From: an uncultured bacterium
GTDB lineage: Bacteria > Babelota > Babeliae > Babelales > Babelaceae
Assembly: GCA_963717435.1 (NCBI GenBank)
Contig: OY970332.1
Span: 960,001 to 1,024,000, forward strand
Reading direction: 5' to 3'
Length of the DNA: 64,000 nucleotides
Shown here piece after piece: positions 5,018 through 64,000 of the stretch. Numbering within the stretch: the stretch's first letter is position 1; each line of letters begins with the position of its first letter. The notes beneath the pieces are model-generated. The model saw only the letters and a list, made by a program, of their open reading frames with translations, had not been told where the DNA came from and made no database searches. The position numbers and the translations under genes are program-made.

Positions 5018-5048
5018 CCAGCTTTCGCTAAAGCTTCAGTTGGCACGG
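5018..5048. repeat. REP-like palindrome, family A
   Basis: ccagct-ttcgctaaagcttc-agttgg-cacgg. Confidence 0.7.
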
Positions 5049-8391: not shown

Positions 8392-8457
8392 ACACCCGCT
8401 CGCCCTGAGTGTTCTTCGAAGCCTTGGCGAAGAAGAATGTATCGAAGGGTCGGGTGT
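8392..8457. repeat. REP-like palindrome, family B
   Basis: acacccgctcgccctgagtgttcttcgaagccttggcgaagaagaatgtatcgaagggtcgggtgt; near reverse complement of 41732..41801. Confidence 0.85.
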
Positions 8458-28417: not shown

Positions 28418-28492
28418 GGCGGCATAGCCAAGCGGTAAGGCAGGGGTCTGCAAAACCCCCATTCCCCAGTTCGATTCTGGGTGCCGCCTCCA
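28418..28492 (+). tRNA. tRNA-Cys(GCA)
   Basis: Cloverleaf; anticodon arm ggggt-ctGCAaa-acccc; encoded CCA. Confidence 0.97.
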
Positions 28493-28522
28493 TACTACGC
28501 TAAAGCTTCGTATGGCGCAGCC
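28490..28522. repeat. REP-like palindrome, family A, fused to the tRNA-Cys CCA
   Basis: CCAtac-tacgctaaagcttc-gtaTGG-cgcagcc. Confidence 0.85.
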
Positions 28523-28602: not shown

Positions 28603-28689
28603 GCCGAGGTGGCGAAATTGGTAGACGCAAAGGACTTAAAATCCTTCGGGGGTTTCCCTGTGCCGGTTCGAGTCCGGCCCTCGGCACCA
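28603..28689 (+). tRNA. tRNA-Leu(TAA)
   Basis: Anticodon arm aagga-ctTAAaa-tcctt, long variable arm, encoded CCA. Confidence 0.97.
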
Positions 28690-28838
28690 TTCATTTCCAG
28701 AGGAAATGAATGGCTGACCTGTTCTTCAACCACACTTTTTCCCCGTTTGTTAAATATTTTTCCCCCGCAAATTTAAATTGGTTCCAAAATAATTTTTTAA
28801 TAATTTTTCCAAAAGTTAAATTCAACATCAAAAAAATC

Positions 28839-38769: not shown

Positions 38770-38844
38770 GCCGAGGTAGCTCAGTGGTAGAGCAGAAGCC
38801 TGAAGAGCTTCGTGTCGGAGGTTCGATTCCTTCTCTCGGCACCA
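38770..38844 (+). tRNA. tRNA-Phe(GAA)
   Basis: Anticodon arm gaagc-ctGAAga-gcttc; encoded CCA. Confidence 0.96.
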
Positions 38845-38873
38845 TCCTGCGCTAAAGCTCCGGATGGCGGGCC
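38842..38873. repeat. REP-like palindrome, family A, fused to the tRNA-Phe CCA
   Basis: CCAtcc-tgcgctaaagctcc-ggaTGG-cgggcc. Confidence 0.85.
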
Positions 38874-61485: not shown

Positions 61486-62378
61486 CAAAAATAGAAAACA
61501 AAGTTTATCACAAATCTGTATTGGTTGATGAAGTAGTTAAATATTTGGCGCCAAAACCGGGCGGGGTATACGTTGACTGTACTTTTGGTGGTGGCGGTCA
61601 TACCCGCGCAATACTTCAAGCGGAACCAAAATGTAAAGTTATAGCGTTTGATTGGGATAAAGTTGCCATAGAAAAAAATGGACCAGCATTGCTTGAAGAA
61701 TTTGGGAATAGACTAGAGATTGTCTGGGGAAATTTTTCACATATATATTATCTTTTAAAAGATATGGGAATTAAAGAAGTCGACGGGATTTTAGCAGATT
61801 TTGGTACTTCCCAGTATCAAATAACTGAACAAGCCGGATTTTCATTTTCAAGGGAAACCCCACTTGATATGCGAATGTCTGTCTCCCATGGTCAAGTTAC
61901 CGCATATTGGTATGTTAACAGGGCACCAGAAAGTGACTTAGTATCTATATTTAGTGAATATGGGCAAGAAAGATATTCACGACGAATAGCCCGTGCAATT
62001 TGTGAATACAGACAACACAAAGATATCAAAACCACTTTGGATCTGGCTGAAATTATAAAACGGGCCGTTCCAAGTTATAAATCAAAAATCCACCCTGCAA
62101 CCAGAGTGTTTCAGGCTTTAAGAATTGTTGTAAATAAAGAACTTGAACATATAAAAACTTTGTTATTACAGTCTGTTAATACACTTTCAAATAACGGCAG
62201 AATAGTTTGCATCAGTTTTCATTCATTAGAAGACAGAATTGTTAAGCAGTTCTTTAAAGAACATAAATCAGAATTTGAAATTTTGACGCCAAAAGTGGTG
62301 GTGCCGACAGAAGAAGAAGTGCACCGAAATCCATCTTCCAGAAGCTCAAAGCTGCGCGCCGCCGAACGGCATAAATAG
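61482..62378 (+). CDS. rsmH: 16S rRNA m4C1402 methyltransferase
   Basis: HKSVL, DCTFGGGGH, PLDMRM, HPATRVFQALRI and SFHSLEDRIVK. Confidence 0.97.
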   Translation: MTKIENKVYHKSVLVDEVVKYLAPKPGGVYVDCTFGGGGHTRAILQAEPKCKVIAFDWDKVAIEKNGPALLEEFGNRLEIVWGNFSHIYYLLKDMGIKEVDGILADFGTSQYQITEQAGFSFSRETPLDMRMSVSHGQVTAYWYVNRAPESDLVSIFSEYGQERYSRRIARAICEYRQHKDIKTTLDLAEIIKRAVPSYKSKIHPATRVFQALRIVVNKELEHIKTLLLQSVNTLSNNGRIVCISFHSLEDRIVKQFFKEHKSEFEILTPKVVVPTEEEVHRNPSSRSSKLRAAERHK

Positions 62379-62404
62379 TTTTTGTTAGCAGTTTTTTTAC
62401 GTAA

Positions 62405-62433
62405 TTGACAACGCTGGTTAAACTCTCTAGAAT
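62405..62433 (+). promoter_or_regulatory. putative sigma70 promoter for spoVG and tRNA-Gln
   Basis: TTGACA-17bp-TAGAAT. Confidence 0.65.
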
Positions 62434-62472
62434 GAGACCAATTGTTTCGATTACTAAAAAAGGATTGCTACG

Positions 62473-62744
62473 ATGAAAATAACAGAAGTTAAAGTTTTTC
62501 CCTCACAAAAAAGTGGAAGCTCAAAGCTTATGCAACAATGGTCTTTGAAAATGCATTTATAGTGAGAGATCTGAAAGTGATTGAAGGAAACAAGGGTTTG
62601 TTTGTTTCTATGCCTTCAAGACGTCGCAAAGACGGCACTTTTAGAGATATAGTTCACCCACTTAACTCAGATATGCGGAAAAACATTGAAGAAGCTATAA
62701 TTTTAGAGTATAATAATGTCCATAGCGTCGAAGTAGACGAGTAA
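62473..62744 (+). CDS. spoVG: SpoVG family protein (one-base frameshift near 62518)
   Basis: MKITEVKVFP...LKAYATMVFENAFIVRDLKVIEGNKGLFVSMPSRR...FRDIVHP. Confidence 0.9.
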
Positions 62745-62776
62745 TCTTGAAATCAAAATTCTAAGAAATATCTTTT

Positions 62777-62851
62777 TGGGGCGTCGCCAAGCGGTAAGGC
62801 ACCAGGTTTTGGTCCTGGCATTCGGAGGTTCGAATCCTTCCGCCCCAGCCA
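62777..62851 (+). tRNA. tRNA-Gln(TTG)
   Basis: Anticodon arm ccagg-ttTTGgt-cctgg; encoded CCA. Confidence 0.97.
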
Positions 62852-63010
62852 GCCTTCGCTCGTTCCGAGCTACGGCTGGGCAAGCCAGCCACGACGAAGC
62901 TTGAAAAGCGTAGGCGGGCGAGACTCAATAAAAAAATAACTTATTTAGCAAAAGTGAGCGAAGGCTGTCACGCTGTAGTAAGCGAGCATAAGCGAGACAC
63001 GAAAGCGGAC
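62849..63010. repeat. cluster of REP-like palindromes starting at the tRNA-Gln CCA
   Basis: CCAgcc-ttcgctcgttccgagctac-ggcTGG-gcaagcc, then cgaagcttgaaaagcgtagg and gcgaaggctgtcacgctgtagt...cgaaagcggac. Confidence 0.75.
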
Positions 63011-63035
63011 CTCACTTGAAAATTCCAAGAAAATA

Positions 63036-63275
63036 ATGTTTTACGTATATATACTTAATTCTATCAAAGATAATGCTCGGATGTATGTTGGGATTACCAA
63101 CGATCTTAAAAATAGAATAAAAGAGCATAATTCTGGCGAATCAATTCATACTGACAAATATTCACCATGGAAACTTATGACATATATAGCCTTTGATTCC
63201 AAAGAAAAAGCATTTTCATTCGAACGCTATTTAAAGTCTGGTTCTGGCAGATCTTTTGCCAAGAGGCATTTGTAG
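63036..63275 (+). CDS. small GIY-YIG nuclease (UPF0213-like)
   Basis: FYVYIL..., YVGITNDL..R..EHNSG, T..Y.PW.L and A..FERYLKSGSGR. Confidence 0.92.
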   Translation: MFYVYILNSIKDNARMYVGITNDLKNRIKEHNSGESIHTDKYSPWKLMTYIAFDSKEKAFSFERYLKSGSGRSFAKRHL

Positions 63276-63338
63276 AATTAAAAAAAATTAACCGGAGATA
63301 AAAACTCCTGTTTTGTTTTGCGAAAAATTTATTGATAA

Positions 63339-63590
63339 TTAACGATTGGGGCAGCCTGGCCAGCAGCAGGGACGCCGCTTTCCATTCTCAAGGCTTGAAC
63401 AACCCCACTCGATTCTGTGCTTTCTAGTTTCCGATTTTTTCGCTGATTCAATCCAGCATATCCACTCATTGCGCGAAAGTGGAGTGATATCCTCCCACGT
63501 AGCCAATGCCTTTGGGTTGGATATAAGCGCTTCTTTCAGATCTTCGGGCAGCTCATGCACTGTCCCGCTAGAAATCTTTTTTTGCGTCAT
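63339..63590 (-). CDS. YdeI/OmpD-associated family protein
   Basis: ELPEDL..AL...ALATWEDITPLSRNEWICWIESAKKSETR..RI and RRPCCWPGC. Confidence 0.85.
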   Translation of the reverse strand: MTQKKISSGTVHELPEDLKEALISNPKALATWEDITPLSRNEWICWIESAKKSETRKHRIEWGCSSLENGKRRPCCWPGCPNR

Positions 63591-63661
63591 GGATCAGATA
63601 ATCCTAAGTAAGAATCTGTTTATAATTTTTTAAATATAGTTCTTAAGATACTATCGATGCG

Positions 63662-63714
63662 ATGGATTTGCAATTTGCCATAGGACTATACTATGATTCA
63701 AGTTGCAAATCCAT
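63662..63714. repeat. long intergenic inverted repeat
   Basis: atggatttgcaatttg...caagttgcaaatccat with an inner catag/ctatg stem. Confidence 0.7.
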
Positions 63715-63785
63715 AATGTGATCTAAGCAAAAAATTTATCAAACTCCGCTATTACACCTGAAGGAATAAAAAATTTCCTCAACTC

Positions 63786-63814
63786 TTGACTTCCCCCCCC
63801 CCATTAATTACAAT
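63786..63814 (+). promoter_or_regulatory. sigma70-like promoter with a C10 tract in the spacer
   Basis: TTGACT-(t C10 attaat = 17bp)-TACAAT. Confidence 0.65.
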
Positions 63815-63870
63815 TAGAAATGTAGGGCGGGAGTGTTGTTCAATATAAATATTTTTAGAAGGGATGTTTT

Positions 63871-64000
63871 ATGTCACGAAGCGTTAAGTATCTTGCTATT
63901 ACTTTAGCAACAATTATACAGGTTCTTCCAATATTCTCTAAAACATGTAGAGACTTTAGTGATCTTGGAAAGTACTTAGGATCTCATGAGGTCAAGGTTT
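63871..64000 (+). CDS. partial ORF with signal peptide, runs off the window end
   Basis: MSRSVKYLAITLATIIQVLPIFSKTCRD..., open to the end; GAAGGGA RBS. Confidence 0.55.
   Translation, partial: MSRSVKYLAITLATIIQVLPIFSKTCRDFSDLGKYLGSHEVKV

Follow-up and report, generated by a model that had tools for sequence, protein, structure and literature searches.

A small GIY-YIG nuclease gene among palindromes that begin at tRNA CCA ends: a candidate REP/RAYT-like selfish system in Babeliales and other bacteria

Why should the last three bases of a tRNA gene also form the first arm of a hairpin, and why does such a hairpin lie upstream of a gene for a very small GIY-YIG nuclease? These questions are raised by the stretch of DNA analyzed here (the window), 64,000 nucleotides representing positions 960001-1024000 of the single 1,198,203-bp contig of an uncultured bacterium (genome G000; 34.6 % GC, 35 tRNA genes, 33 of them with an encoded CCA). 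An initial annotation of the window had described CCA-anchored hairpins behind three tRNA genes and suggested that the nearby nuclease might recognize or spread them. The results presented below lead us to favour, with a little better than even confidence, a selfish system of structure-specific GIY-YIG nucleases, comparable to repetitive extragenic palindromes (REPs) and their REP-associated tyrosine transposases (RAYTs), of which one branch uses the CCA of tRNA and transfer-messenger RNA (tmRNA) genes as its anchor. Three elements of this picture go beyond the initial annotation: a dispersed REP-like family, a second GIY-YIG gene and the spread of the nuclease cassette across phyla.

The cassette occupies the region directly behind tRNA-Gln and is composed of the following features:

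62777-62851, + strand: tRNA-Gln(ttg), the cassette anchor, with its encoded CCA at 62849-62851 (ARAGORN; Rfam RF00005, 60 bits)
62849-62879, + strand: forward hairpin M1, 31 nt, which begins with the CCA of the tRNA (sequence, motif scan and fold)
62874-62890, + strand: tail, an alternative hairpin in which GGCTGG pairs with a downstream CCAGCC around the loop GCAAG (RNA fold)
62891-62954, + strand: spacer, at first GC-rich (remnant of a degenerate repeat) and AT-rich thereafter (sequence)
62955-62967, + strand: inverted copy of the M1 5' half, complementary to 62850-62862 over 13 pairs (RNA fold)
62967-63010, + strand: hairpin H2, of M1 type but inverted, with the outer stem GTC../..GAC and the purine internal loops GTA/GAA (sequence)
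63036-63275, + strand: GIY-1, encoding a 79-aa single-domain GIY-YIG nuclease assigned to the SLX1/UPF0213 lineage (PF01541)

In M1, a 3x3 internal loop (TTC/TAC) separates the outer stem CCAGCC/GGCTGG from the inner stem GCTCG/CGAGC, and the hairpin has a DNA folding energy of -10.2 kcal/mol (z -3.2). Its 3' arm can also pair downstream: the tail hairpin is present in both the minimum free energy (MFE) and the centroid structure of the RNA fold of 62849-63035, and a tail of the form TGG C..G CCAG is conserved after most copies at the tRNA flanks of G000. The RNA fold of the spacer is dominated by the long-range helix 62850-62862/62955-62967 (MFE -56 kcal/mol, z -2.7). At loci of other genomes the inverted copy of the M1 5' half is found in the same layout, and relatives as well as other phyla have modules homologous to H2 upstream of the gene.

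The anchoring of hairpins at CCA is not confined to tRNA-Gln. All four tRNA genes of the window (ARAGORN, in agreement with Rfam) carry a hairpin with the encoded CCA as its first arm and TGG closing the last arm. The hairpins of tRNA-Cys, tRNA-Phe and tRNA-Gln were found exactly as initially quoted, and tRNA-Leu(taa) adds a fourth:

28418-28492, + strand: tRNA-Cys (ARAGORN)
28490-28515, + strand: element behind tRNA-Cys consisting of the hairpin alone, CCATAC...GTATGG, with CGCAGCCAGCC as the tail that follows (sequence and motif; the fold alone is weak, z -0.5)
28603-28689, + strand: tRNA-Leu-taa (ARAGORN)
28687-28713, + strand: perfect-palindrome (class A) hairpin of 12 bp after tRNA-Leu(taa) (DNA fold -10.8 kcal/mol, z -6.1)
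38770-38844, + strand: tRNA-Phe (ARAGORN)
38842-38867, + strand: element behind tRNA-Phe consisting of the hairpin alone, CCATCC...GGATGG, with CGGGCCAGTC as the tail that follows (sequence and motif; the fold alone is weak, z -0.7)

Throughout G000 the hairpins behind tRNA genes occur in three forms: the perfect palindrome CCA-TTCATTTC-loop-GAAATGAA-TGG, found behind ten tRNAs, the conserved-core hairpin already described in the initial annotation, and a conserved-core hairpin bearing a nested insert. Depending on the method, hairpins were counted at 16 of 35 tRNAs (energy), at 18 of the 33 that encode CCA (motif) or at about 20 of 35 (by eye), and a strict scan for perfect stems placed 12 of its 23 genomic matches at tRNA 3' ends. 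Nearly all tRNA hairpins of this genome are followed by C(N)GGCCAG, and only a few by T runs.

To what extent is the position specific? Among 257 tRNA flanks of eight genomes, the core 5-mer T[TAG]CG[CT] stands at offset 3 past the CCA in 57, while none of the other offsets between 0 and 39 is used in more than seven flanks, which bears out the proposed enrichment at tRNA 3' ends; among the unique tRNA/tmRNA flanks, the core is found at offset 3 in 127 of 379. The stem bases differ between copies and still pair, as initially claimed. In 48 of 79 flanks, comprising 14 triplet types, the variable triplet is fully complementary to the triplet preceding TGG, compared to a mean of 6.1 and a maximum of 15 in 1000 permutations. 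Taken singly, neither the Cys and Phe hairpins nor two copies away from annotated tRNAs (positions 1834 and 5018) surpass shuffled sequences in folding; it is the family pattern that supports them. The loop of class A hairpins was observed in both orientations (CTTCA and TGAAG) at the tRNA flanks of G000 and of the relative G038. In G038 the inversion of the loop carries a stem mismatch along (GTC..GCC versus GGC..GAC), which amounts to a small DNA inversion inside the hairpin.

A hairpin that starts within the CCA of a tRNA invites an explanation at the RNA level. The hairpins could be tRNA 3' trailers that assist processing, shield the RNA from exonucleases, bring about termination or act as a switch that sequesters the CCA, while the gene would ride on tRNA transcription or its product would cut the trailer, releasing both the tRNA and its own mRNA. 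Promoter-like sites are located upstream of tRNA-Gln (62686-62714 and 62747-62774), and a site scan found neither a sigma-70-like promoter nor a terminator between tRNA-Gln and the GIY-1 open reading frame (ORF), so that co-transcription is likely. The 3' arm of M1, able to pair with either of two CCA-bearing arms or with the distal inverted copy, has the look of a switch; the stem covariation suits RNA as well as DNA, and the T runs behind a few hairpins would fit as well. We take COG4123 to be a tRNA m6A methyltransferase. Fusions of Slx1-like domains with COG4123 and with a TrmH-like tRNA methyltransferase are described in the available part of a superfamily survey (PMC1564403). Other observations made at the same loci speak against such a role: no terminator-like site was detected in 62600-63450, and no curated RNA family of Rfam 15 matched the tRNA-to-gene spacer in the window, at the loci of 10 relatives or at 20 cross-phylum loci, where the only matches were tRNA, tmRNA and weak antisense plastid matches on the tRNAs themselves. 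Moreover, the hairpin is inverted within a single cassette, and loop inversions that flip a mismatch are events of DNA. Together with the genomic evidence described below, this makes a primary function in RNA unlikely in our judgement, although it is the alternative that we take most seriously.

To learn whether gene and tRNA end belong together, we turned to the other copies of GIY-1. G000 contains three: the first lies behind tRNA-Gln, the second, broken by a TAG codon, behind tRNA-Arg-tct and a hairpin, and the third behind a hairpin that trails a tRNA-like ..GACGCCA end. In relatives, 36 of 50 copies are positioned 55-330 nt downstream of a tRNA (33) or tmRNA (3) on the same strand; the other 14 all possess the hairpin module, three of them at contig edges and several trailing a degenerate tRNA-like end. 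A wider scan with the GIY-1 family alignment against one genome per species yielded at least 592 relatives. The best 80 of these were analyzed; they come from Alphaproteobacteria (including isolates of Bradyrhizobium and Mesorhizobium), Acidobacteriota, Verrucomicrobiota, groups of the Candidate Phyla Radiation, Deltaproteobacteria and Babeliales. In 65 of these best 80, the gene follows a tRNA (60) or tmRNA (5) at a distance of 76-404 nt with the module directly past the CCA, and most of the remaining 15 retain the module or a tRNA end missed by ARAGORN. The predicted enrichment of the hairpins beside GIY-YIG genes is thus evident both in relatives and in other phyla. Since the occupied tRNAs vary widely and include tmRNA, the pattern indicates a site preference and not conserved synteny.

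Upstream of GIY-1 copies that lack a recognized tRNA there is a stretch of weak conservation whose end reads ..GGTTCCTGAAC....GACGCCA. This stretch may represent the 3' end of a tRNA-Glu gene that has decayed and travels with the cassette; it aligns weakly, and Rfam gave no match to it. The stretch is present at these loci:

G000, genome positions 413380-413463
loci L231, L244, L246, L249, L251, L253, L258, L269 and L270

Filled and empty sites were then compared between related genomes. In G004, a member of the same family whose only GIY-YIG protein is of UvrC size, none of 35 tRNA sites is filled by the energy criterion and one of 35 by the motif criterion, and the tRNA genes form compact clusters. 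Within a single genus, G021 with eight GIY-1 copies has 18 of 28 sites filled, while G001 without the gene has 0-1 of 31 together with AT-decayed relics. Compact hairpin-free tRNA clusters in close relatives are difficult to reconcile with a trailer function, and the decayed relics, like the pseudogenes of GIY-1, point to dispensability. Exact insertion junctions could not be defined between G021 and G001, as the intergenic DNA has diverged too far. Among public sequencing runs, none of RNA was listed as containing the sequence. Public DNA reads (four runs from three studies, sharing about a third of the sequence words) contained only the filled form over 61500-64000; with contigs of 151-300 nt and a depth of 2-4, this low-depth result is neutral towards mobility. 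No joint across the cassette was present in these low-depth contigs, and the single 83-nt skip in them stems from a divergent relative.

For a broader test of co-occurrence, 201 genomes of the order were searched with a pattern composed of the tRNA T-loop, 15 nt, CCA, 3 nt and the core. The pattern was found in 167 of the 201, whereas the reversed control gave 0-1 matches. A strong GIY-1 match is present in 117 genomes; these contain on average 8.6 anchored sites, and 104 of them have at least three. In the 63 genomes lacking a GIY-1 match, the mean is 2.6; 18 of these have at least three sites and 25 none. A narrow core pattern was matched by 25 of the 27 relatives that possess a small GIY-YIG gene, versus 5 of the 14 that do not. 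Repeat and nuclease therefore co-occur as had been anticipated, the hairpins being far commoner where the gene is present, but the link is quantitative: 14 gene-free genomes keep five or more.

What kind of enzyme is GIY-1? The 79-aa ORF was confirmed as a member of the GIY-YIG superfamily by its match to PF01541 (61.9 bits at a cut-off of 22.6, E 7.4e-17). The 18 homologues compared share seven invariant residues (Y5, Y17, G19, R27, H31, N32 and E63), which we take to be the catalytic positions. A profile of the homologues matched the UPF0213 structure 1zg2 (3.9e-11) and SLX1 chains (1.7e-8 to 2e-6) in the PDB. The structural model (predicted local distance difference test 92.7) forms a single domain with At-HIGLE and Slx1 as best fold matches (template modelling (TM) score 0.70-0.75; Foldseek entries 7wme, 7cq2, 7cq3 and 6sei, TM 0.72-0.75); I-TevI and UvrC are far more distant (TM 0.50, I-TevI E 0.48). 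Based on sequence profile and model, GIY-1 belongs to the SLX1/UPF0213 lineage. A second Pfam domain was not found, and the protein has no DNA-binding domain of its own. The homing-endonuclease model TIGR01453 reached only 17.9 bits (cut-off 56.05), and a phage protein collection contained no match.

The resemblance to SLX1 and At-HIGLE also suggests a guardian role: the GIY-YIG nucleases would be host repair enzymes that resolve hairpins or cruciforms and are kept where repeats abound, while the repeats themselves spread by replication slippage, template switching or recombination. This would explain why the co-occurrence is quantitative and not absolute and why hairpins persist in gene-free genomes, and it is in line with the SOS box of one Caulobacter homologue reported in the accessible text of PMC1839093. 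A repair gene, however, has no reason to adjoin a tRNA CCA and its own pair of hairpins in many phyla. It is also not expected to be duplicated with the hairpins as a discrete unit or to be bracketed by inverted repeat copies, both of which we describe below, and several copies and pseudogenes per genome look selfish. We regard such a guardian role as quite improbable, though more probable than the involvement of another enzyme discussed later.

Hairpins of this type also occur away from tRNA genes. The shared plan (a 6-bp outer stem, TTC, GC...GC, T(T/A)C and the outer stem again) gave about 106 motif matches in G000, on both strands, compared to 11-24 in shuffled sequences. Filtering left 76 copies; 56 of them are located outside ORFs, although ORFs make up 83 % of the genome, as expected for a high-copy extragenic palindrome. 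About 100 hairpins of the same type away from tRNAs, in both orientations, are again not what a tRNA trailer function predicts. The copies in the window are:

1834-1880, + strand: nested-form copy away from tRNAs, in an intergenic region between divergent ORFs (5 of 6 outer pairs in the motif scan; fold as in shuffles)
5018-5043, + strand: non-tRNA copy behind a tRNA-like end ..GACGCCCA (motif scan; fold as in shuffles)
8412-8437, - strand: REP-like copy with the outer stem TTCTTC/GAAGAA and the same core, whose family also brackets a second nuclease gene, GIY-2 (genome 968412-968437)
13664-13692, + strand: REP-like copy (genome 973664-973692)
41755-41780, + strand: REP-like copy (genome 1001755-1001780)

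The first two had already been listed as related copies in the initial annotation; both match the motif, but their folds lend no additional support. The largest subfamily is unrelated to tRNAs and has a full unit of about 70 nt. Inverted copies of this unit bracket GIY-2 (genome 1066108-1066395, locus L368 at 1066027-1066468), which is located outside the window and encodes a YhbQ-like protein of 94 aa (PF01541, E 9.9e-17). The flanks of GIY-2 genes were judged by reading and by an ungapped inverted-repeat score, as the motif regular expression caught only 3 of 17 loci. Seven of 15 loci scored at least 20, with a shuffled maximum of 11, and by eye further loci bear related units with different inner hairpins. 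In G018, tandem arrays were observed in which the core recurs every 31 nt in 3-4 copies (C12:27114-27221 and C32:5470-5546).

Several observations indicate that the elements have been copied. Ten near-identical class A copies lie behind different tRNAs of G000. Tandem copies, and nested copies too, begin right past the terminal GCCA of the preceding copy. In G003, three cassettes of about 480 nt are approximately 90-95 % identical by eye, one at tRNA-Glu and two elsewhere; each begins with the final bases (..ACGCCA) of a tRNA-Glu-like end, includes the two hairpins as well as the ORF and stops at a terminator hairpin, and the flanks beyond are unrelated. Pseudogenised copies of GIY-1 are present as well.

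How might such copying proceed? In the scheme that we favour, the autonomous element would be a cassette of about 0.45-0.5 kb consisting of the tRNA CCA, the forward hairpin, the spacer, the inverted hairpin and the GIY-1 gene. The hairpin-only elements behind other tRNAs would be its non-autonomous derivatives, and the REP-like palindromes in intergenic DNA would be dispersed members of the same hairpin family. The nuclease may recognize a hairpin or cruciform with the mismatched internal loop TTC/T(T/A)C and nick it at the base, after which host repair or replication (gene conversion or template switching) would copy the palindrome and sometimes the gene. A new site would be any other CCA end able to supply the first stem arm. 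The comparative linkage and the co-occurrence strongly back the initially proposed connection between nuclease, hairpin and CCA end; recognition or spreading of the hairpins by the protein is the part of that proposal that we infer from them.

A different enzyme could also move the hairpins. Elements of the IS200/IS605 type carry subterminal hairpins, insert 3' of a short target without duplicating it and have an element end that resembles the target. The layout described here follows a similar logic, with insertion 3' of CCA, an element ending in GCCA and tandem copies, so that a Y1 transposase of this type, a RAYT or a recombinase might mobilize the hairpins with the GIY-YIG gene as a passenger. 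Y1 transposase genes (PF01797) are indeed present in G038 and G033. No PF01797 match was obtained, however, in the element-rich genomes G000 (a single contig), G021 and G003, and it is the GIY-YIG gene that travels with the hairpins across phyla. Recombinases do occur at tRNA ends of G000. A large serine recombinase-like ORF (Recombinase and Zn_ribbon_recom domains; genome 407172-407999, - strand) is encoded opposite to tRNA-Glu and ends exactly in its CCA, a paralogue is situated likewise at tRNA-Asp (genome about 1174535-1175400, - strand), and similar trailers were seen in G001, G002, G003 and G033. The trailer of tRNA-Glu and tRNA-Asp had been considered as a fourth hairpin class and was rejected, being the 3' end of the recombinase gene on the opposite strand. 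Because these ORFs end in the CCA of the two tRNAs, a second kind of mobile element exploits tRNA 3' ends in G000; these are separate, hairpin-free insertions. Mobilization by another enzyme thus appears highly improbable.

The selfish GIY-YIG system that we favour has to be weighed against a number of findings. Fourteen of the 63 genomes without GIY-1 hold at least five anchored hairpins. The clearest case is G033 (99 % complete, two contigs, only a UvrC-sized GIY-YIG protein) with 12-13 anchored copies, and in the site counts G033, G101, G111 and G122 reach 13-16 without a GIY-1 match. Conversely, nine genomes that bear GIY-1 have merely 0-1 anchored cores. The co-occurrence counts ignore kinship and include many incomplete metagenome-assembled genomes, which inflates nominal statistics. 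Eight of 15 GIY-2 loci have no strong flanking repeat, and GIY-1 is not bracketed on both sides, its two hairpins being located upstream. No event of cleavage, excision or insertion was observed in the comparative data, and neither a target duplication nor a sharp right end of the hairpin-only copies could be defined. A hydrolytic nuclease of 79 aa cannot carry out strand transfer alone. The fusion of prokaryotic Slx1-like domains to RNA/tRNA methyltransferase-like domains, as far as the available text of PMC1564403 describes it, is a hint of an RNA role. The broader generalization, in which a hitherto unrecognized, pan-bacterial class of palindromic mobile elements would owe its replication to small SLX1-like GIY-YIG nucleases, a second and independent invention of the RAYT-REPIN kind with one branch homing to the tRNA/tmRNA CCA as its own first hairpin arm, is put forward tentatively and with somewhat less than even confidence.

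Two further observations concern the neighbourhood of the cassette. The SpoVG ORF at 62538-62744 matches profile positions 24-81 of 82, and its true start is probably upstream, at a codon that is not in the ORF list. A run of about 11 C residues at 63795-63806, approximately 65 nt upstream of the ORF starting at 63871, could vary in homopolymer length.

The significance of the locus lies in the question of what drives palindromic repeats. REP-like repeats are common in bacterial genomes, but only those linked to RAYTs have a candidate engine. The nuclease described here is very small, comes from a different family and is physically linked to palindromes of its own; in genomes ranging from Babeliales to rhizobia, one of its branches is linked precisely to the 3' ends of tRNA and tmRNA genes. 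Should it be the driver of the repeats, this would be a new mechanism of repeat spread that is based on DNA structure instead of a transposase. It would account for thousands of mini-genes annotated as GIY-YIG nuclease family beside tRNAs, provide a compact nuclease that is specific for structure and whose natural substrate is defined, and possibly supply the missing enzyme of palindromic repeat families without a transposase. If the RNA interpretation were true instead, the sequestration of CCA in more than half of the pre-tRNAs of a cell would matter for tRNA maturation. As cultured Bradyrhizobium and Mesorhizobium carry the cassette, the question is directly testable.

The genomic context of a GIY-YIG gene at tRNA ends appears to be novel. 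We found no published account of a CCA-anchored hairpin combined with a small GIY-YIG gene in a literature search that left subscription journals mostly outside. The 2006 survey of the superfamily, in its available part, reports methyltransferase links in the gene neighbourhoods of prokaryotic Slx1-like proteins without mention of adjacency to tRNA genes (PMC1564403). A related case is SegB of phage T4, a GIY-YIG gene among tRNA genes that, according to the accessible text, spreads by cleavage and repair with co-conversion of the flanks (PMC2330249). Homing enzymes of the I-TevI/Seg type have a C-terminal DNA-binding domain and cut a specific sequence, whereas GIY-1 is a bare domain of 79 aa. 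By sequence and fold, its best matches are SLX1, At-HIGLE and UPF0213 (PDB 7wme, 7cq2, 6sei and 1zg2). These enzymes act on branched or hairpin DNA and not on a specific sequence, and the available description presents At-HIGLE as a stand-alone Holliday-junction resolvase (PMC9071465). GIY-1 differs from eukaryote-type SLX1 in lacking a RING finger and an SLX4-type partner. IS200/IS605 elements differ in their Y1 transposase, for which the richest genomes in our analysis (G000, G021 and G003) gave no match.

Among published concepts, the CGTC-tagged REPs come closest. This large class, reported mainly in Alphaproteobacteria, comprises palindromes that have a short unpaired CCA tail, mostly form head-to-head dimers and, in the words of the portion of the article accessible to us, "apparently lack a dedicated transposase" (PMC3733652, Di Nocera et al. 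2013). Alphaproteobacterial cassettes in our data resemble them by a TGTC beside the inverted hairpin. The definition given in the same text (a CGTC/TGTC/CCTC tag, a stem of 8-9 bp, a loop of 4-5 nt and a CCA tail; PMC3733652) does not describe the hairpins of G000: in a comparison limited to this published wording, it returned 25 scattered, unrelated matches on both strands, none with a CCA tail and no repeat family. The REP/REPIN-RAYT systems are a further parallel, as far as the available parts of two accounts go (PMC2817692, PMC3116915). Both kinds of system have many short extragenic palindromes, often as inverted pairs, and one nuclease gene among its own repeats, which here bracket the gene at 7 of 15 GIY-2 loci and lie upstream of GIY-1, and in both the repeats outlive the loss of the gene. 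Measured against the same partial texts, the enzyme here is a hydrolytic SLX1-like GIY-YIG protein in place of a Y1 HUH transposase, the feature recognized is apparently the conserved internal loop TTC/T(T/A)C, and the CCA ends of tRNA and tmRNA genes serve as the anchor of one branch.

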